From the NCBI GenBank assembly GCA_021797775.1, contig JAJZZC010000001.1, forward strand, positions 3,049 to 67,048: a DNA stretch of 64,000 nucleotides, written 5' to 3'. Made by a program: the position numbers and the translations under genes. Numbering within the stretch: the stretch's first letter is position 1; every line of letters starts with the position of its first letter. The stretch comes from Bacillota bacterium (GTDB lineage Bacteria > Bacillota > Sulfobacillia > RBS10-35 > JAJYVN01). Shown here piece after piece: positions 1,369 to 56,725 of this stretch. Below the pieces are notes generated by a model. The model ran no database searches. It saw only the letters and a list, made by a program, of their open reading frames with translations, and had not been told where the DNA came from.

Positions 1369-3423
1369 CTACCCGCCCACTTGGTAGAAGGCGGTCGGTG
1401 TGAAGCTGAGATGATCGAACACGACGCTGAGGTTGTTGCCACCGTTATTGGACCCCCAGATGCCAACCCAGCAGCCGGCCATTTCCAGGGCGGCCGGGGT
1501 GCCGGCCAGCGTCCAGGTCGTCCCGTCCAGAGACGTGTACGCGGTCCACCGGATGACGTCACGCACGAGTTTGAACCATACCGGATGCAACAGGTAGTTC
1601 TTGGGCTGGGGGGAAGTCGTGCGTGGGAGCAGCAGCCCTGCCTCGGGCAGCACCGCAGGCCCGCCGAAGCCACTCTCATCCGTCACCTGGACCTCGGGCA
1701 GCGGCCGGTTCCAGACGTGGACGCCGCGATTGATGGCGGCGGCCACCGTCATCACGGGGCAAGTGCCGCTGAGGTCCCCTCGGGCCATCAACCCGACCTT
1801 GGCTCCTGTCGATGGTCCACCGCCCACGCTGCCGATGGCCGTCAGGCGGCACGCAAATGTGCCCGTGCTGGACGTCCACGGCATACAGGCGAACGTCATG
1901 CCGTCGTTGATGGCCAGCGAGATACCATGACCAGAGCCGATGAGCGTGTACACTCCGTTCTTCACACTCACGGATCCCTTCGGCGCCAGCGTCGGTGCCC
2001 GCCCAAGGCCGGTCTTTGATGGCACGGGGAATGTCACCGCATGCTTGGCCTTCACCGCTTGACCCAGGACTCCCGCGAGCTTGGCCTCGGCACCAAGCGC
2101 CACGGCGGCGGTGGTCTCCAGGGCGTTGATTTGCTTCGCGGCGGCAGCGAATGCGCCGGCCACGGAAATGCTCTTGCTAAGAATCTTTCCGCCCCACGAA
2201 TTCAGGATATTGGTGGCCTCCGAAGGGAAGTACTCGAAGTCCGAGCGGATGGCCAGGTGTGAAGCCATCTGAGTCAGAACCCCCAGGTTCTTTCCCCGCA
2301 GCGGGGGCGCGTACTGCTCCAACGTAGCCACGTACTCTGGCCACAGCGCGTTCAATACCGGCCCTTGCAACTGGACCTTCATCATCCAGCGTTGCCATTC
2401 GGGCCGCGCGGACATCCAGTAGATGAAGGACCATGCGGCTGACGGCTGTTTGGTGATGGCGGAAACCGTGAGGGCATCGGGGCCCGAGTCGTTGAAGACC
2501 CCCCGCGGAAAGGAGGGCAGTGGCCAGAAGTCCCACTTCTGTCCCTGGAACCGCGCGGCAATCTGCGGCAGGGCGTTCATCCCAAAGATATCGGACACCG
2601 CGAGACCCTTCGCCCACTGCGCCGGAAAGGTGCTGGTGGTCAGCCAGGCCTTGCCGGACAGTAGCAAGTCGAAGAACCACTCGCCCGCAGCTATAGCCTC
2701 TGGACTATCCATGGTGCAATGCCGGGGATTCGTCGGGTCAACGTAGGAGCCGCCCCACCCATGCAGGTAACACGAGGCGGGGACGTTGCCTGCGGTGGCT
2801 TGGCCCAGCAACCCCCCCCCGTACACATGCTTCTTGGATGTGATACTCGTGCCCGCGGCCCAGAGCTTGGCGGCCTCCGCAACATCCCAGGTAGGAGAGG
2901 GATAAGGGAGACCGGCGGCGTCGAGCATGCCTTCGTTGACGATCATCCCGTAGGCGTTGGTGTTGTATGGGAGTCCCCACAGCGCACCCCCCGTCCGCCA
3001 GTGCCCCGCGATACCGTTCCACATCGCAAAGTCGACGTTGGCCTGCGAGGCGTATGGGGCCAGGTTCAGCAGAGCGCGCGCCTGCATCACCTCACCTGCA
3101 AAGCCGGTGCCGAAGACGTCGGGAGCTTGTCCGGAGAGCACGTCGCCCACAAACTGTGAATCGCCGATTCCCGGCACCCACCTGATCCTGATACCGCGGT
3201 TGGCGGCCAGAAAAGGCGCGATTCCTCGGTTGCCGATCTCGATCCACACCGGGGTCGTCCCGATAAGACTCACCTGCAGTTCCACCACACCCGACCCGGC
3301 GGTCGGTACCGCGGCCACCGCCGCCGGTCCGAGCAGACCGACCGCCAGCACAGCCCCGACACCCGTGGCTCCGGTTCCGATCAGGCGGCGGCGCGTTGCC
3401 GTGATCCCAGAAGTCCGCAACAC
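1369..3423 (-). CDS. Tat-signal extracellular solute-binding protein (family 1-like) fused to a C-terminal ConA-like beta-sandwich domain; paralogue 1
   Basis: TRRRLI twin-Arg followed by a hydrophobic stretch. SBP motifs: SGQAPDVF, LWGLPY, VNEGMLDAAGLPYP, KWDFWPLP, AAWSFIYWM. C-terminal domain motifs: AKVGLMARGDLS, YTSLDGTTWT, GCWVG. Start chosen at GTG 3423 after a GGGAGGGA RBS (ORF track extends to 3528). Confidence 0.85.
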   Translation of the reverse strand: MLRTSGITATRRRLIGTGATGVGAVLAVGLLGPAAVAAVPTAGSGVVELQVSLIGTTPVWIEIGNRGIAPFLAANRGIRIRWVPGIGDSQFVGDVLSGQAPDVFGTGFAGEVMQARALLNLAPYASQANVDFAMWNGIAGHWRTGGALWGLPYNTNAYGMIVNEGMLDAAGLPYPSPTWDVAEAAKLWAAGTSITSKKHVYGGGLLGQATAGNVPASCYLHGWGGSYVDPTNPRHCTMDSPEAIAAGEWFFDLLLSGKAWLTTSTFPAQWAKGLAVSDIFGMNALPQIAARFQGQKWDFWPLPSFPRGVFNDSGPDALTVSAITKQPSAAWSFIYWMSARPEWQRWMMKVQLQGPVLNALWPEYVATLEQYAPPLRGKNLGVLTQMASHLAIRSDFEYFPSEATNILNSWGGKILSKSISVAGAFAAAAKQINALETTAAVALGAEAKLAGVLGQAVKAKHAVTFPVPSKTGLGRAPTLAPKGSVSVKNGVYTLIGSGHGISLAINDGMTFACMPWTSSTGTFACRLTAIGSVGGGPSTGAKVGLMARGDLSGTCPVMTVAAAINRGVHVWNRPLPEVQVTDESGFGGPAVLPEAGLLLPRTTSPQPKNYLLHPVWFKLVRDVIRWTAYTSLDGTTWTLAGTPAALEMAGCWVGIWGSNNGGNNLSVVFDHLSFTPTAFYQVGG

Positions 3424-4962
3424 GGAATCGTCCCTCCCGTCCTGTGTGCCGATGGAAACAACCACATGCTCCGAGGGGTCGGCGTGGGGCCTCTGGACAA
3501 CGTGACATCTGGTGGTACCCACCGCCATCGCGCCCAGCCCCCAGCACCCTGGCTACAGTGACGACACTGCGCAGTACGTCGCGAGCCGAACCGCTCTGCT
3601 GCAAACCGCGGACACCTTGGGTGGACTCCGGCTGGCATGAGCGACCGGCCGGGGCCGGCGGGCAGGTGCGTGGATCGATGGCCCGCGCCGGGCCGCGGGC
3701 GAGTCGGCGCGCTGGCGCGAGCGCGGTAGGGACAAGTCGGACGGCTCCTTCACGCCATCGCAGGCGATCGTCCGGCGGCCCACGGCTTCCGCCCACCATA
3801 CGGCGCGCGGGGGCGGCGCCTCGCGGCGGCCCCGTGCGTACCGCTGCATGCGAGCCGGCTGGCGGGGAATGGAGGGTCCCTGGCGCGCGGCGTATGGCGC
3901 TTTGGCGGAGATCGCCTCACACGGCATGGTGACATGGAGAGGCCTGTGGGGAAGCGCGGCGCGGGTCGCGGTTGCGGAAGCCGGGGGATGCGCCGTTATC
4001 GACTAAGACTTCTCAACCAACACAAACAACCCCTCCATTCTCCCATCGTGTACCGCAAGGACAACGCCTGTATGGGTATACGCCGGGCGGGTAATGGGGC
4101 CGCCGTTTTATGGATACATCCCTAGTGCCATCGGATCTACCCTCGACCGCCACATGCCCGCCAGACTGCATGCGCGGTCGAGGCGGTACCGCAACGGAGA
4201 ACACCGCGAGTCTGGCACGCCCGAGGTGGTGCTGTCAACCCCCCATCGGTACACTTCACCGGTCAGCGGCCCGCGCGCATGGCCGCATCGTCCGGATGGG
4301 CGCCTCCCTCTCCGGCGGCAGCCACGACCGCGTTGCCCTCCACCTTCCACCGGCATCCTTCGCGGCAGAGACGATGGCGCGGGCGTGCAGCGGCGGAGAG
4401 ATATCCCGTCGGCAGTGCGCCCAGGGCCGAAGGCCCCCCTCCCGTGGGGCGGTCCGACTCGCCGCCTTGGGCCCGTGGGCCCCTTGGCACTGCCCACCCG
4501 ACTACACGCTGGGACCGGGCCCCACCGTCCGTATTCCTCTCGCGGGACCACGCCCGGCGCGCCCAACGTGTAGGGGCTCAGACTACGTGGCGGCAGCAAA
4601 CCTTTTCCCGCTCGGGAAGACCCTGTGCCGCCTGGCTGCTGCCGGGGTCAAGGCCGCGCGGCGGGTGTCAGCCCTTGGCCTTGACCCCAAGGCGGCCGGG
4701 CACGGGAGCGGCTACACCCCAGAGCCCGCCATCCCCTCCTCAGATCTCTCTGTATCGACATCCTGAGTTGTCTTGGCAGAGCCCCCCGGCCGACACGCCG
4801 TCTGAGGCGCGGTAGACGGCCCAGCGGTTGTGGCCGCTCCTGGCACGGACCGCTCACGCTTCCCCGGGCGCGCCGCCCCTCCACGGGGGATGGGGCGTGG
4901 AGATCCGCCCCCACCACCGTTGCCCGCGCCCTGAGGCGACGGCGGCGGGGGCGCGTCTTCTG

Positions 4963-4991
4963 TTGCACCGAACCGACACACCGCATATACT
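4963..4991 (+). promoter_or_regulatory. sigmaA-type promoter upstream of the NRAMP locus
   Basis: TTGCAC-17 bp-TATACT. The -10 lies inside the inverted repeat ACCGCA...TGCGGT. Confidence 0.6.
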
Positions 4992-5040
4992 CTGTGCGGT
5001 TGATTTAGCCATGGTGAAACGAAGGAGGTGATGCAGCGAA

Positions 5041-5202
5041 ATGGAGCGCCGGACAGCGGAAGACCACCTGGCGGACATCTGCCGCCCGTGGCGAGGGGCC
5101 TGGGCGCGACCACGGGCGCCAGCGCCGAGCGGCGCAGCATCAGTCCCACATCGCCCCCGCGAGGTGATGGCGGTTGGCCCGGAGCGGCCCGAAATGGCCT
5201 AG
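5041..5202 (+). CDS. putative 53-aa leader or small ORF
   Basis: AAGGAGGTGA Shine-Dalgarno upstream; MERRTAEDHLADICRPW...PERPEMA*. No recognisable family. Confidence 0.3.
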   Translation: MERRTAEDHLADICRPWRGAWARPRAPAPSGAASVPHRPREVMAVGPERPEMA

Positions 5203-5606
5203 GAGGACGAGAGGGTCCCGTTGGGCGAGCCCCATCCCACCGGGGTGGTGGCCTCGACGTCGGACGTGGCCCCACAGGTTGTGGCCGGTGCGGCCAAGAC
5301 CGCTTGCGGCGCGTCCTCGGAGGGACCGGCCCAGGTCGCTTGCCGGGCTGGCTCGGAAGCAAAGCGACCAAGCGACCGTGGCCGCGCGGCAGCGGACTTC
5401 GCGTCGGTCACCTACCGGGCCTACGAGGGCCGTGCTCCTGACCGACGAGAGGCCCGGCGGTCCCCACCGCGCACCTCCCACCGACACAGGCTGCGCGGAG
5501 CGGTCGTCGGCGATGGAATTGGGGCTCCCGTGGGCCACGCTCGGCGCGTCCGCGCTGCACCGCCTGACCGACCAGGCACCACAGACTGAGGGAGGGAGGA
5601 CCAGGC

Positions 5607-7013: not shown

Positions 7014-7351
7014 CGCGCCGATCGGTACGGCAGCGGCCAGGGGGGAATCCCAGAGTGGCGAATGAAGAGCACCTGTTGGCTGGTGTGGCTGTCGCGCAAC
7101 GCGGCGTATCCGCCGGGGTCCCGCCCCGGGTCGCGGGTCCGCCGCCCGCGGCGGATCGGGAGCGTGACGCAGCCGTAGTCCTGACCGTGCTCGAGCCCGA
7201 CCAGCTCGTGGCCGCCAAGCGGTCGCGCTTCTGCCTGTGCCGCGTGTCGCCTGGGCTGGGGGGGGTCCTGTGGGGGCTCCGCTCATACGTGGTCTTCATG
7301 CTGGCGGTCGTGACGATTGAGGTGGTGAAGGGGCTCACCGGCCACGGATGA
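7010..7351 (+). CDS. small membrane protein translationally coupled to the NRAMP gene
   Basis: ATGA overlap with the NRAMP stop; C-terminal TM LWGLRSYVVFMLAVV, resembling small genes found after this NRAMP clade. Start uncertain. Confidence 0.6.
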   Translation: MTRRSVRQRPGGNPRVANEEHLLAGVAVAQRGVSAGVPPRVAGPPPAADRERDAAVVLTVLEPDQLVAAKRSRFCLCRVSPGLGGVLWGLRSYVVFMLAVVTIEVVKGLTGHG

Positions 7352-10311: not shown

Positions 10312-11592
10312 TCAGCCCGCGCGGGAAGGGGCCGGGTCCACCGTCCAAATCGGCGTGTCTAGCGCCACCCGCCCCCCGTGCCCCTGCGCCTCGACCTCCA
10401 GGAAGGCGGCGCGGTAGACACCCGGCTGGGCCTCCCACTCCACGGTCCACGGGGGCCCGCCGGCCAGCGCCGGCCCGGGACTCCAGCGCGCCTCCCGGAA
10501 GTCCATGGTCGGCTGCGAGCTCGCCCACAGCCGCGGGGGCGACGCGCTGGCCGGTCCATCGACGCGCACGCGCACCCGATCCGCCTCTCGGCGCAACTCC
10601 CAGCGCAGCGGGGCCAGCCCGCCTGCCCCCTCGTCCCCGCCGAGCGACAGATCCCAGAGCGCGGAGAGGGCCCCGGCCATGCGCTCGGGTTGGCCGAGCC
10701 CGTGCCCCGCGTTGGGGATGTATGTGACGTAGGTGGGGGCCGGCAGCGCGTCATGGTAGAGCCCCAGCGCATCCACCGGCCAGTACGGGTCGTTCGTGCC
10801 GAGGATCAGCCACTTGGGCATCGTCAAGCGCGCGCGGTGGGCGAAGGGATCGACCATCGCCAGCAGGTGATCGCCCCCCGGCGCCTCTATGCGCTCCAGG
10901 AGGCCGCGATCGGTGTAATCCGCGATCTCCGGGCTGTAGCCCCCGTCGAACACGTCCCGCTGCCGCCGCAGTTGGGCCCGCATGTCCAGGTTGTCGTAGA
11001 CCATGGGCGCGATAGCGCGCACGCGGGGATCCGCCGCGCCCGCCAGGTAGGTGGTCCAGCCGCGCTTGGAGGCCCCCGCCACGACGAAGCCATCAACGCG
11101 CACGCGCGCCGCCAGAAAGGTCTGCAGCGCGTCCATGGCGCGGACCGCGGCGCGCGTCATCGGCAGCAGCAGCGGCCAGGAGGGATCGCCATCCTCCAGG
11201 AAGCGATCGAAGGTGTGGGCGATGAGCGCGTCCTCGCGGAGATCGCCGAAGAGCGGCTGGTTGGGCACGTCGGCAAGCACGGCCACAGGGGCGGCGATGC
11301 GTAAGGCCAGCGCCTCCAGCAACGCCAGCTCGCCAGCGTGGTCGCCGCTGCCGGTGACATAGAGGAAGCAGCGGCTGGAGGCACCGGCGCCCTCCGGCAG
11401 GATGCAATACAGGCGGTGGGTCCAGGGCAGCCCGCGCCACCGCTGGGATGTGAGGCGCAGCGTGTGGAGCACTGCGGACGACGCGCGCGCAGCGGGCAGT
11501 TCCTCCTCCCAACTCCAGTCGCCTCCGCCGTCGCGCACCAACGCGTCGAGATCGGCCGATCCCCTGTTCACGGCGCCGTCGGCACTGCTCAT
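10312..11592 (-). CDS. PhoPQ-activated pathogenicity-related (PqaA-like) alpha/beta hydrolase family protein
   Basis: LTSQRW, VPNQPL, REDALIAHTF, WPLLLPMTRAAVRAMD, GASKRGWT, PNAGH motifs; start ATG 11592 after GGGGAG. Confidence 0.9.
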   Translation of the reverse strand: MSSADGAVNRGSADLDALVRDGGGDWSWEEELPAARASSAVLHTLRLTSQRWRGLPWTHRLYCILPEGAGASSRCFLYVTGSGDHAGELALLEALALRIAAPVAVLADVPNQPLFGDLREDALIAHTFDRFLEDGDPSWPLLLPMTRAAVRAMDALQTFLAARVRVDGFVVAGASKRGWTTYLAGAADPRVRAIAPMVYDNLDMRAQLRRQRDVFDGGYSPEIADYTDRGLLERIEAPGGDHLLAMVDPFAHRARLTMPKWLILGTNDPYWPVDALGLYHDALPAPTYVTYIPNAGHGLGQPERMAGALSALWDLSLGGDEGAGGLAPLRWELRREADRVRVRVDGPASASPPRLWASSQPTMDFREARWSPGPALAGGPPWTVEWEAQPGVYRAAFLEVEAQGHGGRVALDTPIWTVDPAPSRAG

Positions 11593-12028
11593 GCTGCTCC
11601 CCCGCTGGCGTTGTCGTGCGGTCCCGCGCACGGGACAGCGGTGGCGCGTGCGACGCACCTGGAGCCCCGCGTCGGCGCCCCGGCCCTGGCGCCGACGCGC
11701 CCCCTGACACCCGCGCCCCGGCCGACCCCGTCCGGGGCGGCGGCGGTAGGCGCGGGCAGTCTCCGATGTTCGGCAGCGCTCTGGCCGGCGTGGCACCCGC
11801 CCCCAGCCACCCGCCTTCGTAGCGTTCGCACAGGGTGCGGCGGCCCCCTGCCCCGGCGGCCCGCATGATGGTGTCGTGCAGGGGGCCCTCCCCCGCGGAC
11901 CGCCGGGCGAGCAGCCCACTTGAAGGGACTCGAAGAGGGTGTCGATCCCCTCCTCCGCTTCGCCACCGTGCGCCCCCTCATGCCCCCCACCGCGCCCCGG
12001 CGGCGTGGGCGCGGCGCACACGCCGTGC

Positions 12029-14206
12029 TCACGCCGCTGCCCGTTCCCCCTCCCCTTCCCCGCGCCGGCGCCCGGCGGCCAGCCCGAAGGGCCACCAGGT
12101 CGAGCGGCCCAACAGCGCGACGGAGGTGGGAACGAGGCATGTGCGCACGATCCAGGTGTCGAGCAGGATGGCGACGGTCATGCCCAGGGCCATCGTGCGC
12201 ATGAGCTGCAGGGGCGAGAGCAGCATGGCGGCGAAGGCCACCACCATCAGGAGACCCGCCCCGGTGATCATCCCCCCGGTCTCCCCGAGGCCGCGCCGCG
12301 CCGCCTCACGGGCGCCCGCGCCCGCCGCGGCATGCTCACGGATGCGGTGGATCAGGATGACCTCATAGTCCATGGACAACCCGAACAGGATGACGAAGAT
12401 GAGCGGCGTGATGCTGGCGTCCAGCGGCAGCGCCTCAAACCCCAGACGGCCGTGCTGCACGAAGAAGACCAGCAGCCCCGCCGTGGAGAGGGCCACCAGC
12501 CCGTCGAAGACAACCGCCAACAGGGCCACCCAGAGCGAACCGCTTGCCGCGAACAGCACCACCAGGGCCACGGCGGCTACGGCCAGTACCATAGCCGGCA
12601 GCGTGCGCGCCACCAAGCGGTTGAATCCAGCTAAGAGCGCGATCGGCCCGCCCACGCCAGCCCGCCAGCCGGAGGGCAACGTCCGGATGATGGCCTGCAC
12701 CTGATGCAGCAGGGCGAGCGTCCGCGAGCTGTCGGGCGCATAGCGCGAGGTCACCGAGAGGACCACCAGGTTGGGAGCCGCCGTCGCCGCGGCCAGGGCG
12801 GCGGGCGGCCCGCCCGGCGCAGCGAAGGCCTGGGCCAGCGCCGCCGCGGGGAGGCCGGACCCGGCGGGCGAGGCCACGGCGGCGGCGGCGGGCAGCGCCT
12901 CGATGCGGTGCGTCACTGCGGCCGCCCCGCGCCACGTGGCCGGGTCGGTCAGCGGCGCCGGCGCTCGCAGCACTACCGGAAGAGGCGCGATCGAGTCGGG
13001 GCCGTAGTCCTTCTGCTGCTGTTCCACCGCGAGCCGGAGCACGTCGTGCGGCGCGAGCATGGTCGCTACATTCGCCGGGGTGCTGACGGAGATGCCGGGC
13101 GCCTCCAAGGCAGGGATGGCCAGGAGCGTCGCGCCCACAACCAGCACCGCCACGGGCCGGCGCGTCACAAAGGCGGACAGGGCCGGCCAAAAGCGGGCGG
13201 CCGCCCGCGGCCGCGGCAGCCTGCCGCGTTCGCTCTGCGTGCCCAGCATGGCAAGCAGTGCTGGCAGCAGCGTGAGCGTGGCGAGGAGCACGGCGAGCAC
13301 GGCGACGCAGCCGCCCAGCGCCAGCCCGCTCCAGTACGCGGTGCGCGGCAGGAGCAGCGCGAGCATGGAGGCGCCCACCGCGAGCGCCGAGAAGAACACG
13401 GACCGCCCGGCCGTGCGCATGGCCTCGGACAGCGCCGCGACCACGGCATCCCGACCGCCGCGCGCCGGCCCGGCGCCATCCCCCGCGGCCTGCCGGCGCA
13501 GCGCACCGCGGAAGCGCGCACTGAGGAAGAGCGAGTAGTCGATCCCCACGCCCAGGGCCAGGAAGCTGACGATATTGGTCAGGTACACCGAGAGCCGCAT
13601 ATACGGCTCCAGCAGGTCGATCGCGGCCAGCGCCACCGCCGCGCCAACCAGCGCCACGAGGAGCGGGAGGACCGCGGCGACCGCCGAGTCGTAGACGAAC
13701 AGGAGCAGCACGGCGAGGACCGGCACGGCCACGAGCCCGGCCACCCGCAGGGTCGCCGTCGCCGCCTGGAGCACGCCGTTGCCCGCCGTGCCGAGGTTAA
13801 CGCCCTGGGCGCGCACCCCGCGCAGGCCGGCCAAGCGCGCGCGCAACGCCATCACGGCCGCCGTCGCGCGCGGACCCGGCAGGGCGTCCACCACCACCGC
13901 GTCGGCATGGCCCGGCAGCGCGGACAGGTGCGCCGTCGCCAGGGGAGTCCCCGCCGTCGCGGCGGCCGCCGCCCAGATCGGCCGCACACCGCTCACCGAC
14001 AACCCCTGCACCAGGGTGCTCAGGCCCGGTTCCCCGCTGGACGGCAGGCGCCGCAACTGCGTGTCCGCCCACGCCGCGGCGCTGCGCGGATCCTCGAAAC
14101 CGGACCCCACCAAACCGTGGGTCACGTGCAAGGCCCGCGGCAACGCCAGGGCCAGCACCGCCAGCCACAGCGCGAGGACCAGGAAACGGTAGCGGTACCA
14201 GCCCAT
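12029..14206 (-). CDS. MMPL family transporter
   Basis: ALGVGIDYSLF, TAGRSVFFS, ILFGLSMDYEV, ITGAGLLM motifs; start MGWYRYRFL after GGGGAGG. Confidence 0.92.
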   Translation of the reverse strand: MGWYRYRFLVLALWLAVLALALPRALHVTHGLVGSGFEDPRSAAAWADTQLRRLPSSGEPGLSTLVQGLSVSGVRPIWAAAAATAGTPLATAHLSALPGHADAVVVDALPGPRATAAVMALRARLAGLRGVRAQGVNLGTAGNGVLQAATATLRVAGLVAVPVLAVLLLFVYDSAVAAVLPLLVALVGAAVALAAIDLLEPYMRLSVYLTNIVSFLALGVGIDYSLFLSARFRGALRRQAAGDGAGPARGGRDAVVAALSEAMRTAGRSVFFSALAVGASMLALLLPRTAYWSGLALGGCVAVLAVLLATLTLLPALLAMLGTQSERGRLPRPRAAARFWPALSAFVTRRPVAVLVVGATLLAIPALEAPGISVSTPANVATMLAPHDVLRLAVEQQQKDYGPDSIAPLPVVLRAPAPLTDPATWRGAAAVTHRIEALPAAAAVASPAGSGLPAAALAQAFAAPGGPPAALAAATAAPNLVVLSVTSRYAPDSSRTLALLHQVQAIIRTLPSGWRAGVGGPIALLAGFNRLVARTLPAMVLAVAAVALVVLFAASGSLWVALLAVVFDGLVALSTAGLLVFFVQHGRLGFEALPLDASITPLIFVILFGLSMDYEVILIHRIREHAAAGAGAREAARRGLGETGGMITGAGLLMVVAFAAMLLSPLQLMRTMALGMTVAILLDTWIVRTCLVPTSVALLGRSTWWPFGLAAGRRRGEGEGERAAA

Positions 14207-14722
14207 CGCCGCCTCCCCACGAGTCACACACCCACGGATCATAGCCGAGCCACGGGGAAGCCACCACGCCTCGTATGCGCGGGCAGCACACCAGCGGCAG
14301 CCGGCGGACCGGGGCGAGACGCGGGCCGACGGCCCAGTGGCCGGGCCATGTACCCGCGCGACGCGGGGAAGGCGACGGGACGCGGGGCGACGACGATGCG
14401 CCCTGACCGCCTGGGAAACGGGGCGGTGGGCCCGCCTGTGGTCGCTTGGCGCCACCCCGCGCGCGGACGGCAACCCGTTTGTGTCCGGCCCCACGGCAGA
14501 GGCAGGTTCATCCGTGCGGCGCGTGCGAACCGGCCAGGGGGGACCTGGGCCCAGGCCGTGCCTAGATGGACCCAGCGGCGAACGTGGCGCGCCCTAGCTG
14601 GAGCGGGCCGAGCGCGCCGCGGCGAACCAGACGGGAGGGCCCGGAGCGACCGGGCCCCCAGCCCACCGGCGGGCTTGCCGTTACCCACAAGCCCTGGGTC
14701 CACTACCCCTGCTGTCTATAAT

Positions 14723-17093: not shown

Positions 17094-19295
17094 ATGGCCT
17101 TGACGGGGGACGAATCGCCAGGCTCCGGTCCGCGCCTGACGCGGCGGCGCGCGTTAGGCTATGGTGCGCTGGTCGCCGGGGCGGTCGCGGCAGGCGGAGG
17201 GTCGGTCTCCACGGTCGCCGCGGCCGCGCCCACGGGGACGAACCCGGTCACCGTGGTGTGGTTCAACATCAACTGGCAGACCAACTGGAATCAAGCCGCG
17301 GTGACCCTGGTGCAGGACTTCACCGACGCGAATTTCAACTCCAAGCACAAGGGAATCCGCGCGCAGCCGACGACGGGGCCCTGGGGCAACGCCTCGGGCG
17401 TCTACGCGCAAGTGCTGGCGGGTGACGCGGCCAGCACGCCCGCCGTCCTCAGCAGTTGTTGCGGGGACTTCGCCATCGCCCTGCCCATGCTGGAGAATCT
17501 CAGTCCATGGTTTAGCAAGGACAACATCAACCCGCAGACCATGTACTCGCCCGGCCAGCTCCTCACCTTCACGGAACCGACGGGTCTGTACGGCGTGCCG
17601 GCGTACACCTGCGTGCAGCCGCTCTTCTACAGCCAGACGCTGTTGGATGACCTGGGGCTGGCTTACCCCGATCCAGCGTGGGACTACACCGAGGCCACCC
17701 GTCTCTGGCGTTCCATCGCCGGCAAGGCGAGCAATGGCCAGTGGCGCTACGGCAGCAGCATGCAGTGGTACCAGACGTATTTCGACGGAGGGCTATGGCT
17801 ACTCAAGGGCTTTGGTGGGGAACTGATGGATCCGACCCGTACGCGCTGCCTGCTGGGAATGCCCGAATCCATCGCCGCAGCCAACTGGATTTATCCATTG
17901 ATCTGGGACAAGGTGCTGATCAACCGCGGCGGCGCGGCGAACTGGACCAGCGTTGGCGGTCCCCTGCTCGCCGGCACGTGCGGCTTTACGCAGACCGCGG
18001 GCTTTGGGTTGAGCCACATGGCGGCCTATGTCGGCAACAAGATCAAGTGGGACATCGTGCCCATGCCCTCGTGGCCCGTGCGGCGCGCCAGCAACGTGCA
18101 GGTGGACTACTTCGGCATGAACGCCGCATACCCGAACAAGGAGCTGGCGTGGGAACTGTTCAAGTTCCTCGCCGTCGACCAGGCCACTGAGGCCTTCGTC
18201 ATCAAGCTGTCACTGACCGAGCCCAAGCTGCTGTCCATGTGGGATCAGTGGGAGGCGATCGTCACCGCGGCCGCGCCGCCGCTGCGCGGCAAGCAGTTGA
18301 AGTGGTACGCCATCGGCGCGCAGCAGGGTTGGGGTTTCGGGCACCAGTTTTGGAAGTATGACGACTCCACGGTGGAGTCCGCCATGGGCACGATCTTGGG
18401 CCAGATCTGGAATCATCAGATGGACCCCGCGGAGGGGTACCCGCTCCTCGCCAAGCAGATCGACGCGATGCAGGCGGCGGGACAGAAGACGAACGCCGTG
18501 TTGGCGACGGAGGAGGCTGCCCAAGCCAAGGCCCTGGCCGCCGTCAAGGTCGGACCCACCACCCAGTACCCCGCCCCCTCGATGACGGGGGTGGGAGTGC
18601 CACCGACCGAGGCCAAGAACCTGGTCGTCGTGGGGCCCGGTGGCAGCTACACCCTCTTGGGTGACGGCTGGGACATGTGGTCGTCGTCCGACAACACCGT
18701 TTTCGCCTGCGCCCCGATGACCGCGACAGAGGGCGAATGGTCCTGCCGGGTCACGATGGTGACCAACCTCACCTGCCCGCACCTGAGCCAGTGGTCCAAG
18801 GTCGGCATCGGGGCGTTCGGCGACTTGTCCGACGACAGCCCCGCGGCCTATCCCCACGTGACGGGCGCTCACCAGATCGAGTGGCAGTACCGTATCGTCC
18901 CCGGCCTTACACCCAGCGGCGCATCGGGCCTCTTACCGACCGGGGTGAAGAATCTCATGGCTCTCAACACCAAGCCCGCAGCCAACTACCTCTTGGCACC
19001 CCTCTGGCTGAAGATCAGCCGCAAGGGACAGGAGTGGACCCCGTGGGCATCCATGAATGGCAAGACCTGGACACAGATCAATCCGCCGGCCGTGGTGCGC
19101 ATGGCGGGCTGCTGGGTCGGGATCTACGCGTGCGCCCACAATGGCAGTTTCGGGAACAAAGGGTACATCCGGGCCACCATCGACAACCTGAGTTTCACGC
19201 CGACACACTTCATGCAAATGGGTAATACCGGTACACCGCCAGCGGCGGGACCGGTACCCAAGAACTGGGCCACGATGACGCCCGCGGGAATGTGA
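17094..19295 (+). CDS. Tat-signal solute-binding protein fused to a ConA-like domain; paralogue 2
   Basis: LTRRRAL signal, GLYGVPAY, LAYPDPAWD, ELAWELFKF, APPLRGKQL; C-terminal GDGWDMWSSSDN...NYLLAPLW...GCWVG; AAGGAGG RBS. Confidence 0.9.
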   Translation: MALTGDESPGSGPRLTRRRALGYGALVAGAVAAGGGSVSTVAAAAPTGTNPVTVVWFNINWQTNWNQAAVTLVQDFTDANFNSKHKGIRAQPTTGPWGNASGVYAQVLAGDAASTPAVLSSCCGDFAIALPMLENLSPWFSKDNINPQTMYSPGQLLTFTEPTGLYGVPAYTCVQPLFYSQTLLDDLGLAYPDPAWDYTEATRLWRSIAGKASNGQWRYGSSMQWYQTYFDGGLWLLKGFGGELMDPTRTRCLLGMPESIAAANWIYPLIWDKVLINRGGAANWTSVGGPLLAGTCGFTQTAGFGLSHMAAYVGNKIKWDIVPMPSWPVRRASNVQVDYFGMNAAYPNKELAWELFKFLAVDQATEAFVIKLSLTEPKLLSMWDQWEAIVTAAAPPLRGKQLKWYAIGAQQGWGFGHQFWKYDDSTVESAMGTILGQIWNHQMDPAEGYPLLAKQIDAMQAAGQKTNAVLATEEAAQAKALAAVKVGPTTQYPAPSMTGVGVPPTEAKNLVVVGPGGSYTLLGDGWDMWSSSDNTVFACAPMTATEGEWSCRVTMVTNLTCPHLSQWSKVGIGAFGDLSDDSPAAYPHVTGAHQIEWQYRIVPGLTPSGASGLLPTGVKNLMALNTKPAANYLLAPLWLKISRKGQEWTPWASMNGKTWTQINPPAVVRMAGCWVGIYACAHNGSFGNKGYIRATIDNLSFTPTHFMQMGNTGTPPAAGPVPKNWATMTPAGM

Positions 19296-41865: not shown

Positions 41866-42891
41866 GTGGCGCGCGCGTTGGGCAGGGACGGCGGCCGTGC
41901 GATGAGGGGGTGGTCCGCGGTCCCGGCAGGGGGCGGCGGTCCGCTGGCGGAGGTGGGCGACTCACCGCGTACCGACCTCGCGGTCGAGGCCGTGGAACGA
42001 CCGCACCGCGTGGAAGGCATCGACGTCGAAGAGGGGCACGAGGGCGAGGTGGCGGTGACACGGGTTCGCGTTCGCAGTGACGAGGCGGAGCGCGTAGTGG
42101 GTAAGCCCCGCGGTACGTATGTGACGCTGGACGCCCCCGGCCTCTTGCGTCGCGACACCATGGTCCAGGAACAGGTGGCGCGGGCGCTGGCCCGCGAACT
42201 TGGCGCGTTGCTACCCCTGGATGCGGATAGCCACGTCTTCGTCGTCGGCCTCGGCAACTGGAACGCCACGCCCGACGCCCTGGGCCCGCGCGTGGTCGGC
42301 GAGATCCTGGTGACCCGGCACCTCGCCGACCAGGTCCCTGAAAACCTCGCGGGCCAAGTGCGCCGCGTGTCGGCCCTCGCCCCGGGCGTGCTCGGCCTCA
42401 CCGGCATTGAGACGGGGGAGATCATCCGCGGCATCGTCGCCCGTATCAAACCCGACGCGGTGGTCGTGGTGGACGCGCTCGCCTCACGTAGCGTCGAGCG
42501 CCTGGGCCGGACCATCCAGGTAGCGGACAGCGGCATCCAACCGGGGTCCGGTGTTGGCAACCACCGCAGTGGCATCGACGCCCAGACCATCGGGGTGCCA
42601 GTGGTGGCGGTCGGCGTGCCCACGGTCGTGCACGCGGCCACCATCGCCGCCGACACCATCGACCTGCTGGCGGCCGAACTGGACGGGCAGCCCGCGTACG
42701 CCGGTCTGCGCCTGCTCCACGGAGACGACAAGAGGCAATTGATCGCCCGGGTGCTGGCCCCTGCCGTTGGAGACCTCATGGTGACGCCTAAGGAAATTGA
42801 CCTATTGCTGGATGATCTTTCTAGCGTCGTCGCCGCCGGCGTCAACGCCGCCCTGCATCCGAAAGTCGCAGCGCAGGAGAGCCTGCTCTAG
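41866..42891 (+). CDS. gpr: germination protease (GPR endopeptidase)
   Basis: RTDLAVE, VGLGNWNATPDALGP, PGVLGLTGIET, VDALAS, GVPTVV, LMVTPKEID. Start could be ATG 41902. Confidence 0.93.
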   Translation: MARALGRDGGRAMRGWSAVPAGGGGPLAEVGDSPRTDLAVEAVERPHRVEGIDVEEGHEGEVAVTRVRVRSDEAERVVGKPRGTYVTLDAPGLLRRDTMVQEQVARALARELGALLPLDADSHVFVVGLGNWNATPDALGPRVVGEILVTRHLADQVPENLAGQVRRVSALAPGVLGLTGIETGEIIRGIVARIKPDAVVVVDALASRSVERLGRTIQVADSGIQPGSGVGNHRSGIDAQTIGVPVVAVGVPTVVHAATIAADTIDLLAAELDGQPAYAGLRLLHGDDKRQLIARVLAPAVGDLMVTPKEIDLLLDDLSSVVAAGVNAALHPKVAAQESLL

Positions 42892-49100: not shown

Positions 49101-49643
<543 letters not shown>

Positions 49644-50110: not shown

Positions 50111-50201
50111 TGGAATCGCCCGGGAAGCGCGCCAGTGCCGGGACAGCGGCTGCGCTAAGCCAACGCTTCGCACCCCCCGTGGCGCGGACGGCGCTTTTGA
50201 T

Positions 50202-51509: not shown

Positions 51510-51558
51510 CCCGTCACCGCTCCTCTCCCGCTGCGGACGACCGGTCCCCGCGGCGGCC

Positions 51559-52727
51559 TCATCGTCGCTGTGCCCGATGACCCAAGCCCTCCAACACGGC
51601 GAGCGCGGCGTCGGCCTCCCCGGCCGTCGCGAAACCCAGGCGCAAGGTGCCGCCTTCTCCCTCACGCAGCCGCAGGATCTCGATGTCCTGCACGTTGATC
51701 CCGCGCTCCCCCAGGGCACCGCACAGGTGCCCCAACACCCCGGGCCGGTCGGGGACGAAGAGCACCAGGTCGTGGTAGGCCGGAAGGAGGCCCTTGCCGC
51801 GCGCGGGGAGCCGTCCACGCACCGCGCGGGCATCCGTGAAGTGGCGCGTGAGGGACGCCCGGTCTCCGGCGGCCACCGCGCGCCGCACGTCGGTGAGCAG
51901 GGCCTGGACGGCGTCGATCCCGGCGACGACGCGGTCGCGATTGGTATCCAGGACATCGAGCCAGAAGTCCGCGGGGCTCTGCGCGATCCGCGTGGTGTCG
52001 CGAAAGCCGCCGCCGGCCAGGGCCAGCACGCCCGGGTCACCACCCTCGGCCAGGCCGGCGGCCTCCGCCAGGGCCACGGCCACGAGCTGGGGCAGGTGGC
52101 TGATGGCCGCCACCCGCGCGTCATGCCGCTCGGCGTCCAGGGCGACCGGATGCGCCCCGGTAGCCTCCACCAGCTCGCGCAGCTTGGCTGTCGCCCATTC
52201 CGGCCCACCCGGTTCCGCGCAGATCACCCACACCGCCTGTTCGAAGAGGTACGGGTCGGCCGCTTCGACGCCGGCACGCTCGCTCCCGGCCATGGGGTGA
52301 CCGCCGACGAAGACGGGGGGGGCACGGCCGCGGCGTGCCCGCGGAGGGCCGCCGCCATGGCGGCGGCGATGGCGGCCTTGGTGCTCCCGACGTCCGTGAT
52401 CAGGCAGCCGGGATCCGCCGCCGCCGCCACCTCCGGGGCCATGGCGATGCACGCCCGGATCGGCGCGCCGAGCACGACGACGTCGGCGCCGCGCACCGCC
52501 GAGGGCAGATCCACCGCCACCTCGTCCACGGCCCCCAACTCCAGAGACCGACGAAGCCGCTCGGGCGTGCGGGAGAAACCGACCACACGGCCCACCGCGC
52601 CGCGCTGCCGCCAGCGCAACCCCAGGCTGCCGCCGATCAGGCCGACCCCCAGGATCGCCGCACGCGCCGCGACGGGGGTTTGGGCCGGTTCCCCCGCGTC
52701 CCCGGACGGGCCCGCCCGCTCAGGCAT
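51559..52727 (-). pseudogene. tyrA: prephenate dehydrogenase with ACT domain, frameshifted at a C8 tract
   Basis: The N-half (GVGLIGGS, TDVGSTK) and the C-half (GGHPMAGSE, HD..VAAISHLP, FRDTTRIA, PDRPG ACT) are in different frames, switching at the G8 run 52315-52322. Confidence 0.88.
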
Positions 52728-53763
52728 GGGCAGCAGGCGAGCGCGCGGGGTGAAGTTCGCGGTCGATAGCCGCGGCCACACGCTGGACGTCGGCGGCCAT
52801 GTGCGCAAAGGCCGCGAAGTTGAGGGTCTGGGGGCCGTCGGAAAGGGCCTCGGCCGGGTTGGGATGGACCTCGACGATCAACCCGTCCGCCCCCGCGGCT
52901 ACTCCGGCCCGCGCCAGGGCCGGCACCAGCGCGGAACGGCCGGTTCCGTGGCTCGGATCGACGATGACCGGCAGGTGGCACATCTCCTTGACGACCGGCA
53001 CCGCGTTGAGGTCGAGGGTGAAGCGTGTGGCCGTCTCGAACGTCCGGATGCCCCGCTCACAGAGGATCACGTCGTGATTGCCGCCGGCCAGCAGGTACTC
53101 GGCGGCCATGAGCCACTCCTGGATGGTGGCGGCGAGGCCGCGCTTGAGCAACACGGGCATCTTCGTACTGCCCACCTCGCGCAACAGGTCGTAGTTCTGC
53201 ATGTTGCGCGCACCGATCTGCAGGCAGTCCGCGACCCGCGCCACCCGTTCGACGGCTTGCGGGCTCATGACTTCGGTCACGATGGGCAGGCCGACCTCCG
53301 CCCGCACTTCGGCCAGCAGATCCAGGCCCTCCTCGCCGAGGCCGTGGAAGCCGTAGGGCGACGTGCGGGGCTTGTACGCACCGCCGCGCAGGATGCGCGC
53401 CCCGGCGGCCTTCACGGCGTGCGCCGTCTGCAGCAACTGCTCACGGCTCTCCACGGAACAGGGCCCCGCGATGAGCACCACCTCGGGTCCGCCGACCTCG
53501 ACGCCGGCCACACGGACCAGCGTGGGTTCGGGATGGCCCTCGCGGCTCGCCAGCTTGAACGGTTGGCGGATGGGTACCACCTTCTCCACGCCGTCCATCG
53601 CCTCCAGGTCTGTGCCGGGCAGCACGTTCTTGTCGCCGACTGCGCCGATCACCGTGCGTTCGGAGCCGCGCGAGATGTGGGCGTCAAAGCCCAGGTCCCG
53701 CAGCCGGCCGGCCACACGGGCGACGGCCGCATCGTCCGCGCCGGGCCTCATGACCACAATCAC
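52720..53763 (-). CDS. aroF: DAHP synthase (type I-beta)
   Basis: [51 protein letters not shown]. Confidence 0.96.
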
Positions 53764-53861
53764 GACGCGCACCCCCTGCAGTGGTTCCCCGGCCTCGCGC
53801 CAACGGTCCGGCTGGCGCCAAAAGGACGTCCTCCCCGGCAGGCGCCGACGGCCCGCCGGGG

Positions 53862-54170
53862 CAAAAAAAAGCCCCCGCCCGTCGTTAGGGGCGGAGGAAC
53901 CGCGGTACCACCCTAGTGTTCCATACGGCATAGCAGCCAGCGCCGTGGAACGCTTTGCCGCCCGCACGGCCGCCCTCGCGGCTCGTCGTGGGCTGTCCCT
54001 TACCGCGGGACCAACGCCCGGCCATACTGGGCCGTTCCACCGCCGCGGAGGCGACGGAACACCGTTCCTGCCGGGAGCCTCGGGGTGTATTCACGCGCGT
54101 CCAGCACCGGGCTCCCACCGTCCCCGGCTCGCTAGCGCCGACCTGCCACGCTACTCTGCCCCGTCATAGG
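53862..54170 (-). promoter_or_regulatory. T-box riboswitch (probable Tyr specifier) with terminator
   Basis: AGGGTGGTACCGCG T-box followed by a hairpin plus T8; GAA-TAC-A specifier context at 54089-54087; lies upstream of aroF-tyrA. Confidence 0.9.
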
Positions 54171-54182
54171 TGGATCATCGCC

Positions 54183-54212
54183 AGTATAGGCAGGCCGCGG
54201 CGGGCCCGTCAA
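54183..54212 (-). promoter_or_regulatory. sigmaA promoter for the T-box/aroF operon
   Basis: TTGACG-18 bp-TATACT on the minus strand. Confidence 0.75.
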
Positions 54213-54324
54213 CGGCGGGACGCGAGCCACAGCTGGACGCGGCGCCGCCGCTGCCGGCCCGAGGTGGGCGGCGGTGGGGCGGTGACCGGCGGCGCAACCG
54301 CCCCGGCGGCCCTTGCCCGATCCA

Positions 54325-54451
54325 CCTGATTGCCGCGAAGGGGCGGTCCGTCGCCTTGTCGCCCGGGGGCCGGCCCCTCCCCACCACCTCACCCGCCCGC
54401 GTCGGGGGGCCTTCCGCGCCAGCGCCGTCCCCTGACTTTGGCAGGTTCAGG
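54325..54451 (-). mobile_element. diverged 127-bp MITE, copy 5
   Basis: CCTGA...AAGGGGCGG..GTCGCCTT...GGCCGGCCCCT...CTCACCCGC...TTCAGG; flanks ATCCA and ATCAA (near-duplication). Confidence 0.75.
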
Positions 54452-54553
54452 ATCAACCTGCGCGGCCAGTCCGCCTCGACCGCCCCCCTAGGACCACGCG
54501 CCCAGGGCCTGCCGCTCGCAAAGATCCAGGACGCGCCTTCGCGCCTGCGGTGC

Positions 54554-56725
54554 TCAGGTCACGCCCACGGTGACGAACCGGTCCGGCTGGAAGCCGGCGA
54601 CATGGTCGAAGATCGCCAGGACGTTGTTGCCGCCGTGGGGGGTCGCGTAGACTCCCACCCAGCAGCCCAGGAAGCCCATGCCCACTGGCGCGTAGGCCTG
54701 GGTCCAGTCCGTCCCGTCGAGTGACGTATACGCCGTCCAGTGATCAACCTCGAAGTCGAGCCGCAGCCACACCGGGCGCAGAAGGTAGTTGTGCGCCGGC
54801 CGGGTCGCACGGCGCAGGATCACGTCCTTGCCGATCAGGCCCGTCGGGTTGCTGTTCGAGGGCGGGCGGTGATCCCCGAGCGAGGTGCCCGCGAACGGCC
54901 GGGTGTGCATGTGTACGCCTCTGCCCACCGCCACCTCGATGCCGATCTCCCCCGCCATGCTGGAGAGGTCGCTGCGCGCCATCAGGCCGATCTTGGCGCC
55001 GTCCGTCAGGCTGTGGCCCACGTGTGCGGCAATAGAGGCCAGGCGGCAGACGAACCGGCCGCGGCCCGCCACGTAGGCCTGGGCGGCGAAGGTCATGCTG
55101 TCGAGGGCGCCAGCCACCCCCCCGCCCTCGCCGATGACCGTCACCGTGCCGGATCTCTTGTTGACCCACGCCAGGGAAGGGGACGGGACCGGAGGCAACC
55201 CCAGGCCGCCGACCGGCGGCTCAGGGAAGCGGATGGCGCGCCCGGCACCCTCCGCGGCCATCCCCGCGGCCACCGCGGCACGGAAGCGGCGCCGCGCCTG
55301 CGCCCGTGACGCGGCGGCGCCGCCGGCCGCCTGCTGCGCCGCGTCGATCCGCTGCGTCATCTCGCGAAAGGCGGCGTCCACGCCGATGGTCTGCGCCTCC
55401 AGCATCCGGGCGTAACGCGCGATGATGCCTTTGACCTCCACGGCGGCGTAGCGGAAGGCGCGGCCGAAATACGGTTCGCCGTTGCGCACCGGCAGGACGA
55501 AGGCGTCCAGGTTCTTGTCCCGGAGTGGCGGCGCGAACTGCACCACGATCCGCTTCCATTCCTCCCACAGCGCCGCCTGGTTGGGTCCGGCCAGAGCGGT
55601 ACGCATGACCAGGCGCTGCCAGTCGGGACCGAACGCCATCCACTTCAGCAACGCCCACGCCTGCTCGGGGTGGCGCGTCCCGGACCACACCCCGTAGAAG
55701 TCGCTGGCTGCGTACGCGCTGCGCCGCACCGGCCAGGCAGGATCGGGGAAGAAGTCCCAGCGGAAACCCTTCCACCGCTCCGCCTCGGCGACCTGGCCCC
55801 CGTATGTGCCCGTGTTATGGGTACAGACCACTTTGCCCTTGACGAAGTCGCCGAAGCCGGCGACGCCGTCCCAGAGGAGTTGGTAGCGGGCGCGCCCACA
55901 GGCCAAAGACCCCGGGCTGCTGAGATAACAGCGCGTCGGATCGACGGGGTCCACGTATTCTCCCCCGTAACCCCAGAGCCGGTACGGTGTGATCATGTTA
56001 TAACTGTAGTCATAGCCCGCGTTGTCGAGGTCTGTGCCAAACCGCTGGCGCCTGCCGCGGCCGGGCCGTACCGTCACCGCCTCCCACAGCCGGGTCCAGT
56101 CCTGCACCGTCCAGTCCGGCTGTGGCGATAGGTGGCCGACGCCGTCCACGGCGCTGAGGTTCACGGCATAAGCCTGGGTATGCACGTACGCGGGTACGGC
56201 GAAGAGAGCGTGGGGCTGGCCGGGCGCGAACTGGCCGGCCTCCTGGAAAAACGTCATCTCCCCGGGCGGGAAGATGTCCAGCTGCAGGCGATCGCGCTGG
56301 ATGTAGGGAGCGAGATCCAGCATCAGGTCGTTCTGGACGAACGGGCGGAGGATCCAGTCGGAGAAGACATCCGGGCCCGTGCCGGCCAGCATGGCCGCCT
56401 GCGTGGCCCCCTGGTATCCCTGGTCGGTGAACAGCCGGACCTCTACGCCCGGATGATCCGCGAAGAACGACCCCATCCCCGCGGAAAGCAACTCCCAGAG
56501 TGCGGGGCCGACAGCCGTGGGCCAGGCCTGGGAGGGCAGAAGATAGAGCACCACGGGCGCCGCCGCCGCAGGCGTGGGGCGGCTCGACACGGGGCGCCGG
56601 GCCCCGCCGCAGGCCACCAACAGCGTGCCGGCAGCGGCTGCGCCCGTCCCGGCCAGCGCCGCCCGCAAGGCACGACGGCGGGTCCACCCTCCCTCGGCGG
56701 CCGCCGCGCCCCGCCTGGAGAGCAT
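54554..56725 (-). CDS. Tat/lipoprotein solute-binding protein fused to a ConA-like domain; paralogue 3
   Basis: WTRRRAL plus LLVAC lipobox, AGTGPDVF, LDLAPYI, HPEQAWALLKW, APPLRDKNL; C-terminal AKIGLMARSDLS, NYLLRPVW, YTSLDGTDWT, GCWVG. Confidence 0.88.
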   Translation of the reverse strand: MLSRRGAAAAEGGWTRRRALRAALAGTGAAAAGTLLVACGGARRPVSSRPTPAAAAPVVLYLLPSQAWPTAVGPALWELLSAGMGSFFADHPGVEVRLFTDQGYQGATQAAMLAGTGPDVFSDWILRPFVQNDLMLDLAPYIQRDRLQLDIFPPGEMTFFQEAGQFAPGQPHALFAVPAYVHTQAYAVNLSAVDGVGHLSPQPDWTVQDWTRLWEAVTVRPGRGRRQRFGTDLDNAGYDYSYNMITPYRLWGYGGEYVDPVDPTRCYLSSPGSLACGRARYQLLWDGVAGFGDFVKGKVVCTHNTGTYGGQVAEAERWKGFRWDFFPDPAWPVRRSAYAASDFYGVWSGTRHPEQAWALLKWMAFGPDWQRLVMRTALAGPNQAALWEEWKRIVVQFAPPLRDKNLDAFVLPVRNGEPYFGRAFRYAAVEVKGIIARYARMLEAQTIGVDAAFREMTQRIDAAQQAAGGAAASRAQARRRFRAAVAAGMAAEGAGRAIRFPEPPVGGLGLPPVPSPSLAWVNKRSGTVTVIGEGGGVAGALDSMTFAAQAYVAGRGRFVCRLASIAAHVGHSLTDGAKIGLMARSDLSSMAGEIGIEVAVGRGVHMHTRPFAGTSLGDHRPPSNSNPTGLIGKDVILRRATRPAHNYLLRPVWLRLDFEVDHWTAYTSLDGTDWTQAYAPVGMGFLGCWVGVYATPHGGNNVLAIFDHVAGFQPDRFVTVGVT

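Follow-up and report, generated by a model that had tools for sequence, protein, structure and literature searches.

The three genes treated here lie dispersed in a 64,000-nucleotide stretch of the draft genome of a Bacillota bacterium (contig JAJZZC010000001.1 of assembly GCA_021797775.1), which is referred to below as the window. We found that they belong to an expanded, lineage-restricted family in which a family-1 sugar-type substrate-binding protein (SBP) is fused to a C-terminal beta-sandwich, that no permease gene adjoins the fused genes, and that LacI/GntR-type sugar regulators are encoded beside several members of the family. With a probability that we put at about 0.5, the fused proteins are individually regulated oligosaccharide receptors that would feed a few shared permeases of the carbohydrate uptake transporter-1 (CUT1) type, the sandwich acting as an accessory module for glycans or the envelope.

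The three window proteins have one common order of parts: a twin-arginine signal, a family-1 SBP, a 39-residue helix, a PxPxxxGxG linker and a beta-sandwich of about 220 amino acids (aa). The corresponding features, with the open reading frames (ORFs) from which they were read and the evidence for each, are as follows:

1369..3423, minus strand: paralogue 1 (P0001), SBP with twin-arginine translocation (Tat) signal and DUF1349-like domain; read from GTG 3423, the longest ORF being 1369-3528 from ATG 3528 (719 aa)
2410..3213, minus strand: SBP_bac_1 match of paralogue 1, residues 106-373 of the 719-aa ORF (Pfam)
1372..2043, minus strand: PxPxxxGxG linker and beta-sandwich of paralogue 1, 224 aa (AlphaFold2 (AF2) model, Foldseek, structure alignment)
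17094..19295, plus strand: paralogue 2 (P0002, 733 aa), SBP with Tat signal, DUF1349-like domain and conserved C-terminal tail (ORF, Pfam, AF2 model)
17307..18185, plus strand: SBP_bac_1 match of paralogue 2, residues 72-364 (Pfam)
18426..18542, plus strand: long Ala-rich helix of paralogue 2 joining SBP to beta-sandwich, residues 445-483 (DSSP on the full-length model)
18555..19292, plus strand: linker, beta-sandwich and tail of paralogue 2 (alignment of 24 paralogue domains); the tail is residues 711-733, 19224-19292
54554..56725, minus strand: paralogue 3 (P0003), Tat signal with lipobox LVAC, SBP and DUF1349-like domain; read from ATG 56725, the longest ORF being 54554-56947 (797 aa)
55598..56515, minus strand: SBP_bac_1/SBP_bac_8 matches of paralogue 3, residues 145-450 of the 797-aa ORF (Pfam)
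54557..55240, minus strand: linker and beta-sandwich of paralogue 3 (alignment of 24 paralogue domains; GH43_C2, 17.2 bits)

GTG 3423 and ATG 56725 are in-frame start codons inside longer ORFs, and motifs resembling Shine-Dalgarno sequences precede all three starts (GGGAGGG before GTG 3423, AAGGAGG before ATG 17094 and AGAGGA before ATG 56725). The preliminary description of the window had listed a set of motifs common to the three genes, and every one of them proved invariant in a three-way alignment: TRRR and APPLR.K.L (A407-L415) in the N-terminal part, P501/P503/G507/G509 in the linker, and C560-R561, D585-L586-S587, NYLL.P.W (N644-W651), S666/G669/W672 and GCWVG (G685-G689) in the sandwich. 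The other two window proteins are 31% and 35% identical to paralogue 1. All three exceed the 26-bit Pfam cut-off for SBP_bac_1 (46.8, 56.8 and 37.6 bits for P0001 to P0003). The Pfam matches of the sandwich are sub-threshold: DUF1349 reached 15.1 bits in P0001 and 17.9 in P0002 against a threshold of 32.4, and P0003, in which the scan gave no DUF1349 match, has the GH43_C2 match listed above against a threshold of 22.7. No NCBIfam model covers the three proteins. The genes were also said to stand without an adjacent permease or ATPase, which holds for the whole contig: no BPD_transp_1 or ABC_tran match was found among the 54 window ORFs scanned, and none of the 29 BPD_transp_1 or 66 ABC_tran matches of the genome falls on the contig of the window (C155). 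The genes that flank the three copies are housekeeping or unrelated (an esterase-like hydrolase, a class-I tRNA synthetase and DAHP synthase).

The C-terminal part is a domain of its own with a recognizable fold. From an alignment of 24 paralogue domains, AF2 modelled the C-terminal 224 residues of paralogue 1 in isolation as an all-beta structure with a predicted local distance difference test score (pLDDT) of 93.0 and a predicted template modelling score (pTM) of 0.91, and we therefore regard the sandwich as an independent domain. Foldseek placed 3o12 (E 2.8e-7) and 3mep first, followed by the C-terminal domains of family 43 glycoside hydrolase (GH43) beta-xylosidases and then by legume lectins. 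A structure search against all representatives with VIA-align ranked 3mep_A first of 48,161 chains (Z 18.8, root mean square deviation 2.2, 163 aligned residues), above GH43 C-terminal domains (Z 14-17) and CBM66, GH16 and PL7 domains (Z 10-13). We take 3o12, a yeast protein, and 3mep (ECA2234) to be the two solved DUF1349 (PF07081) proteins. The resemblance to concanavalin A (ConA)-like/DUF1349 modules proposed earlier from the sequence pattern is thus borne out by structure. In sequence, a DUF1349 match at E ≤ 0.1 was obtained for 23 of the 24 paralogue domains (best E 1.8e-5), all window proteins remaining below the gathering score, and a search of PDB sequences with the C-domain profile gave chance-level matches only (E 0.6 and 1.2). 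Compared with DUF1349 (3mep, 3o12) and GH43_C2 (PF17851), which provide its best structural matches, the sandwich differs by its PxPxxxGxG lead-in, its CR motif and a WAT tail. This tail, with the motif G.PP..G.VP..WAT, ends 12 of the 24 sandwich domains, those of paralogue 2 and 11 others.

The full-length model of paralogue 2, built from an 80-sequence alignment, reached a pLDDT of 91.2 and a pTM of 0.84 and consists of a disordered signal region (residues 1-45), a bilobal SBP, the helix and the sandwich. Its final 23 residues, though devoid of regular secondary structure, are modelled with confidence (pLDDT 91-97). The pTM of 0.84 over 733 residues suggests that SBP and sandwich hold a defined mutual position in the predicted structure. 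Foldseek matched the SBP half to the oligosaccharide-binding proteins CbpB (7x0i), Lmo0181 (5f7v) and MalE1-3 over about 420-440 columns, and also to AbnE and cyclodextrin-type binders; the TM-scores by target were about 0.7-0.8 for CbpB, Lmo0181, MalE and AbnE. To judge from fold and family, a sugar may bind in the cleft between the lobes. No natural two-domain counterpart was found in the PDB, in which the whole-length matches were artificial maltose-binding protein fusion constructs only. Each of seven sandwich residues (D533, R552, R575, R600, R643, S653 and D655) is retained by 86-100% of 58 domains from six genomes, and the mean pairwise identity among the paralogues is 39.8% for the sandwich versus 29.9% for the SBP core. 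At the level of sequence, this is consistent with a sandwich that does the same job in every copy and an SBP whose ligands have diversified.

Public protein representatives were searched with the sandwich profile, and 11,023 matched at E ≤ 1e-3 and 570 at E ≤ 1e-30. The best 150 of the 11,023 comprised 71 full SBP-sandwich fusions (585-973 aa), 13 partial ones, 56 long proteins without an SBP and 10 short proteins. All 11 long proteins without an SBP that were scanned contained DUF1349 above threshold, usually as repeats, together with fn3, PA14, CHB_HEX_C, Laminin_G_3 or dockerin domains, and giant proteins with DUF1349 repeats scored E 1e-25 to 1e-45 with the profile. For the sandwich, a structure search of the ESM Atlas pointed to modules of DUF1349 type in multidomain proteins that bind carbohydrate, the majority from Planctomycetota and Acidobacteriota; in the same resource the whole protein matched generic SBP clusters only (scores ≤ 0.88). 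The database names of the fusions are automatic ("glycerol-3-phosphate..." and "multiple sugar transport system substrate-binding protein"). To our knowledge DUF1349 is widespread, with two solved structures and no known function, and in the papers that our literature search found to mention the term it is absent from title and abstract. Whether the architecture was an already described family had been raised in the preliminary description; our literature search found no description of an SBP-sandwich fusion, with subscription journals and supplements outside the search, so that the fusion may already be in print. The same search did not find a strategy of many receptors and few channels described for sugar ABC systems or for Bacillota.

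The number of copies was determined in the host genome (G000), a draft of 5.55 Mb in 407 contigs with 72% G+C, 89.7% complete and 6.7% contaminated; contigs, loci and related genomes are cited below by our working numbers (C, L and G). Hidden Markov models built from the window domains were run over all six-frame ORFs. They detected 22 full fused ORFs (at least 700 aa and containing both parts) and two more cut by contig ends, giving 24 fused genes, besides 13-14 unfused close relatives that end after the long helix (426-560 aa) and five sandwich-only ORFs (212-275 aa). The earlier view of an expanded family therefore stood, and its count of three paralogues did not. An independent whole-genome profile search gave 41 sandwich matches at E ≤ 1e-10. 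The statement that the copies are otherwise highly diverged extends to the genome: the mean pairwise identity of the 22 full paralogues is 32%, and since the closest pair is only 52% identical, the paralogues are, by their sequences, old and not strain duplicates. At least 10 remnants that are truncated, frameshifted or internally deleted lie inside contigs; remnants were recorded on C304, C124, C332, C134, C111, C9, C274, C302, C343, C196, C215 and C143, and those of C124 and C332 join a short N-terminal SBP piece to a complete sandwich. Such remnants are either pseudogenes left by birth-and-death turnover or assembly errors.

Binding proteins of this class far outnumber the permeases of the genome. 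The 51 SBP_bac_1 matches represent roughly 47 genes, of which about 37 belong to the single subfamily of the window genes. The 29 BPD_transp_1 matches lie on 16 contigs, and 10 of these contigs also hold an SBP_bac_1 match, so that there are about 10 CUT1-like loci (on C171, C242, C349, C377, C216, C181, C284, C276, C196 and C105). The comparison of paralogue number with CUT1 permeases proposed in the preliminary description thus sets 24 fused genes against about 10 permease loci beside a family-1 SBP, and the numbers do not match. The orphan status claimed for the window genes applies to the family at large: 23 of the 24 fused genes have no permease match on the same contig, and C105 is the only contig with both a fused gene and permease matches, the latter about 3 kb upstream beyond an oppositely oriented gene. 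Outside this contig, no fused gene is encoded with a MalF/MalG-type permease pair, the arrangement that marks CUT1 receptors. Among the unfused relatives a single copy, on C242, lies in a classical SBP-permease-permease operon. In 20 loci of G000, 108 neighbour ORFs included permeases only at C105 (fused) and C242 (unfused); there was none among the 82 ORFs around 10 fused loci of related genomes, the 24 ORFs at 18 short loci or the 23 ORFs at four metagenome loci.

The family is confined to a narrow lineage. Matches to the sandwich profile were found in all five other species-level genomes of the same taxonomic family (6, 6, 4, 14 and 3 matches); the 35 genomes taken from further families within that order or class had none, and in a phylum-wide sample of 400 genomes, scored on up to six candidates per genome, two genomes matched, both weakly (E ~1e-12). 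These results agree with the descriptive part of the earlier proposal, that of a lineage-specific, diversified repertoire. A surplus of family-1 SBPs relative to permease domains characterises the bacterial family as a whole, the SBP_bac_1/BPD_transp_1 matches being 20/11, 34/12, 55/38 and 64/22 in G002 to G005 and 6/10 in G001. Only in G000 do fused genes predominate; in G004 they are common. A metagenome scan yielded 10 related loci, two of them fused, and a related-locus search of genome contigs with another alignment (A1) yielded four, none of them fused.

In a tree of 58 sandwich domains (29 rows from G000 and 29 from its relatives, partial matches left out), orthologues of different genera interleave, and a clade of nine members restricted to G000 (support of 100 in the Shimodaira-Hasegawa-like approximate likelihood ratio test, SH-aLRT) contains paralogues 1 and 3, paralogue 2 being placed in a separate clade. 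Fused and unfused forms are intermingled in the SBP tree, and well-supported branches force at least six changes between them. The pattern suggests that the sandwich was lost repeatedly within the subfamily, with a count that is soft, since a contig end truncates at least one of the copies scored as "unfused" (C273). We also considered domain shuffling between paralogues, as the SBP and C-domain trees place P0003 and the copies on C168 and C288 differently; the SBP grouping was not rejected on the C-domain data by the approximately unbiased test (p 0.223), and this candidate was dropped. One copy occupies the same position among pantothenate genes across genera: the order panC-fused SBP-panD is kept in G000, in G005 and on a 123-kb metagenome contig, so that the orphan state is old and stable. 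The loci with this panC/panB-panD copy are L007 (G000:C168:1-7521), L033 (G005), and L063 and L059 (metagenome), with DnaE downstream in two.

The strongest clue to function comes from regulator genes, which recur beside the family. Peripla_BP_3, the mark of LacI/GntR-type sugar regulators, has 13 matches in G000, and seven of these lie within 2 kb of a family member (binomial P ~8e-7). The neighbours are full fused genes on C136, C288, C307, C337 and C355, the sandwich-only ORF on C208 and an unfused gene on C48. The C355 pairing of a LacI regulator with a fused SBP recurs at the orthologous locus of G004 (L041:2-1009), a genome of another genus. Regulator-receptor modules of two genes without a permease were noted at loci L016, L013, L008, L010, L011 and L020. 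The neighbourhoods also contain, repeatedly, genes for glycan-active enzymes: GH38 and GH84, GH13 and alpha-L-fucosidase twice each, sulfatases and a fragment resembling GH5/GH2. Such enzymes would make fucosylated, sulfated, mannosidic, GlcNAc-containing and alpha-glucan oligosaccharides candidate ligands. Members of two groups that are numerous in the genome recur there too, the GFO/IDH/MocA oxidoreductases with 77 matches and the xylose-isomerase-like TIM barrels with 44. The abundance of the latter two in a 5.5-Mb genome hints at a lifestyle of oxidative sugar or glycoside catabolism. An all-against-all BLAST of 37 unannotated flanking ORFs revealed no recurrent partner beside the fused genes.

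With regard to export, a twin-arginine motif followed by a hydrophobic stretch was detected by regular expression in all 22 full fused ORFs, and G000 encodes a TatC (match E 4.4e-56). A lipobox Cys is present in two of the 22, including P0003, and absent from P0001 and P0002. It is also missing from 8-9 of the 14 unfused relatives and from most operon-encoded SBPs of G000; for the difference between fused and unfused forms the Fisher P was 0.084, falling to 0.036 when one doubtful lipobox was included. The genome, complete to 89.7%, gave 51 SLH matches and no match to Omp85.

These observations can be assembled into a working model, which is an inference, like the functional part of the earlier proposal (docking on a shared transporter or sensor, with the extra domain capturing glycans or anchoring to the envelope). 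In this lineage, an SBP subfamily with a long helix already at its C-terminal end would have gained a DUF1349-like sandwich of ConA fold and would then have multiplied, diverged and decayed by birth-and-death. Each protein would be exported by Tat, as the motif and the presence of TatC suggest, and most copies, having no lipobox, would be freed from the membrane by signal peptidase I. The variable cleft of the SBP would bind a particular oligosaccharide, as its fold and family suggest, and the protein would pass it on to a member of the small set of CUT1 permease pairs encoded at other loci, a few translocators thus serving many receptors. Many copies would be switched on individually by the adjoining LacI/GntR-type regulators, and the sandwich, apparently fixed in position on the SBP core, would serve all of them as a common accessory module for polymeric glycan or the envelope. 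A more specific version, to which we give a rather small chance, makes the sandwich, and not the variable SBP, a common adaptor recognised by a shared partner (a wall polymer that would gather the receptors at the membrane, or a shared translocator or sensor) through which dozens of receptors would be connected to at most 10 permeases.

Parts of this model have counterparts in known systems. Like the CUT1 family-1 SBPs of clusters B and D (CbpB of Clostridium thermocellum, Lmo0181, MalE1-3 of T. maritima), the fused proteins have SBP_bac_1, a bilobal fold and an N-terminal export signal, and the subfamily includes the operon-encoded member on C242; unlike them, they are about 250-300 aa longer owing to the long helix and the sandwich, and all but one of the fused genes lack a permease match on the contig. 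An over-representation of orphan SBPs has been reported for the tripartite tricarboxylate transporter (TTT) class, with the "Bug" proteins of Bordetella and 434 TTT SBPs in Rhodoplanes sp. Z2-YC6860 (PMC5994714); PMC11452294 and PMC5812351 also deal with TTT orphan SBPs. According to PMC5994714, that expansion is similarly lineage-specific, with binding proteins far in excess of membrane components and with scattered genes that sometimes lie beside regulators. The present family differs in its ABC CUT1 class, its occurrence in a Bacillota-like spore former and not in Proteobacteria, its sugar-type SBPs and its fused lectin-fold domain. Several SBPs serve one ABC permease in Pseudomonas aeruginosa, where DppA1-A5 are reported to work with DppBCDF (PMC4206461). 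The arrangement of many receptors on one translocator would be the same here, with about 37 sugar-type SBPs of one subfamily in place of five peptide SBPs.

Several points weigh against shared-permease receptors. No particular cognate permease can be named. A rigidly mounted sandwich, as the pTM of 0.84 would imply, could block the face of the SBP on which a permease docks. The greater conservation of the sandwich may merely reflect the different constraints on beta-sandwich and alpha/beta folds. Tat-signal models of Pfam and NCBIfam gave no match at E ≤ 1, so that the Tat assignment is that of the motif. The adjacency of GFO/IDH/MocA genes is not above chance (6 of 21 loci versus 3.3 expected, P 0.098). 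Finally, several fused genes in the 407-contig draft lie less than 2 kb from a contig end, and some permeases may be unassembled.

The export data bear on a different role for the sandwich, which we regard as possible though doubtful: transport would be kept, and the sandwich, perhaps with the WAT tail, would be a non-covalent anchor that keeps lipid-free SBPs on the wall or S-layer of a cell lacking an outer membrane, and not a substrate binder. The missing lipobox in 20 of the 22 fused proteins, the absence of an Omp85 match together with the 51 SLH matches, the conservation of the sandwich above the SBP core with its retained Arg and Asp residues, as expected for one common ligand, and the tail, present in half of the domains and confidently modelled in paralogue 2, would all suit an anchor. 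The lipobox, however, is missing from unfused and operon-encoded SBPs as well, the Fisher P of the difference between the forms is 0.084 (0.036 with the doubtful lipobox), and the DUF1349 repeats of giant secreted proteins with fn3, PA14, CHB_HEX_C and F5/8-C domains fit substrate binding equally. We think it unlikely that the proteins have left transport altogether and act as secreted or surface glycan binders or co-sensors, signalling through another membrane partner or sequestering glycans, with the link to ABC transport lost. Such a role would explain why no permease adjoins the fused genes in six genomes or at the two fused metagenome loci, and it could accommodate the copy held in the housekeeping panC/panD position across genera, the GGDEF-methyltransferase genes downstream of two copies (L004:9173-11122 and L016:7856-9898; the two fusions are similar, one has a PAS domain, and both lie just downstream of fused SBP genes) and the MIP-family channel gene directly upstream, on the same strand, of one G002 copy (L057:120-992; a single case); TTT expansion SBPs are also reported to lie near sensors and regulators (PMC5994714). 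Yet the adjacent regulators are of cytoplasmic types with sugar-binding domains, which normally respond to imported sugar, the unfused member on C242 remains in a canonical operon, no sensor kinase or chemoreceptor recurs beside the genes in G000 or at the relatives' loci, and the BLAST of the unannotated neighbours found no recurrent partner.

That the sandwich is an enzyme of ConA fold (a lyase or hydrolase resembling PL7 or GH16) which the SBP would target to its substrate is very improbable: PL7 alginate lyases and GH16 enzymes do occur among the structural matches at Z 10-13, but they rank below the non-catalytic DUF1349 and GH43 C-terminal domains (Z 14-19), no Asp/Glu pair is invariant across the 24 paralogues, and no Pfam lyase or GH16 match was obtained. 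Contamination, strain mixture or misassembly of this metagenome-assembled genome, as its 6.7% contamination, 407 contigs and at least 10 truncated or frameshifted pieces might lead one to suspect, is a scarcely credible source of the copy number, given the 52% identity of the closest full pair, the presence of the family in all five related genomes, orthologues and synteny common to several genera, and the 71 full fusions among the best 150 database representatives.

Some further features of the window and of the family's loci were noted. A homologue of the PhoPQ-activated pathogenicity-related family (PF10142) is encoded directly downstream of an MMPL-family transporter gene (window 10312-14494, minus strand). 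A DruA (Druantia) ORF combined with an ISAZ013-type DDE transposase (L017:10814-12973, plus strand) and DruA alone (L005:6247-6819, plus strand) lie near fused SBP genes. By its gene content the organism is a spore former: the window encodes the germination protease Gpr (Peptidase_A25; 41866-42891, plus strand), and a SpoVT-like regulator is found at L011:7882-8769 (minus strand). The lineage is thus one of endospore formers with a very high G+C content (72%).

The substrate range of ABC importers is set by their binding proteins, and in this genome about 37 of about 47 family-1 SBP genes fall into one orphan subfamily, half of which carries a built-in lectin-fold domain. This points to an uptake strategy of many receptors and few channels. 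DUF1349 gains a concrete context, fused to a sugar receptor and beside sugar regulators, and the regulator-receptor pairs, compact as they are, could become a source of specific glycan sensors or binders. The evolutionary pattern is the one of the TTT orphan-SBP expansion, now in the sugar ABC family of a Bacillota-like lineage and with a lectin-fold domain built in. If the sandwich does prove to be an adaptor, it would represent a new way of coupling a large, fast-evolving receptor repertoire to a small and fixed uptake machinery in cells without an outer membrane.

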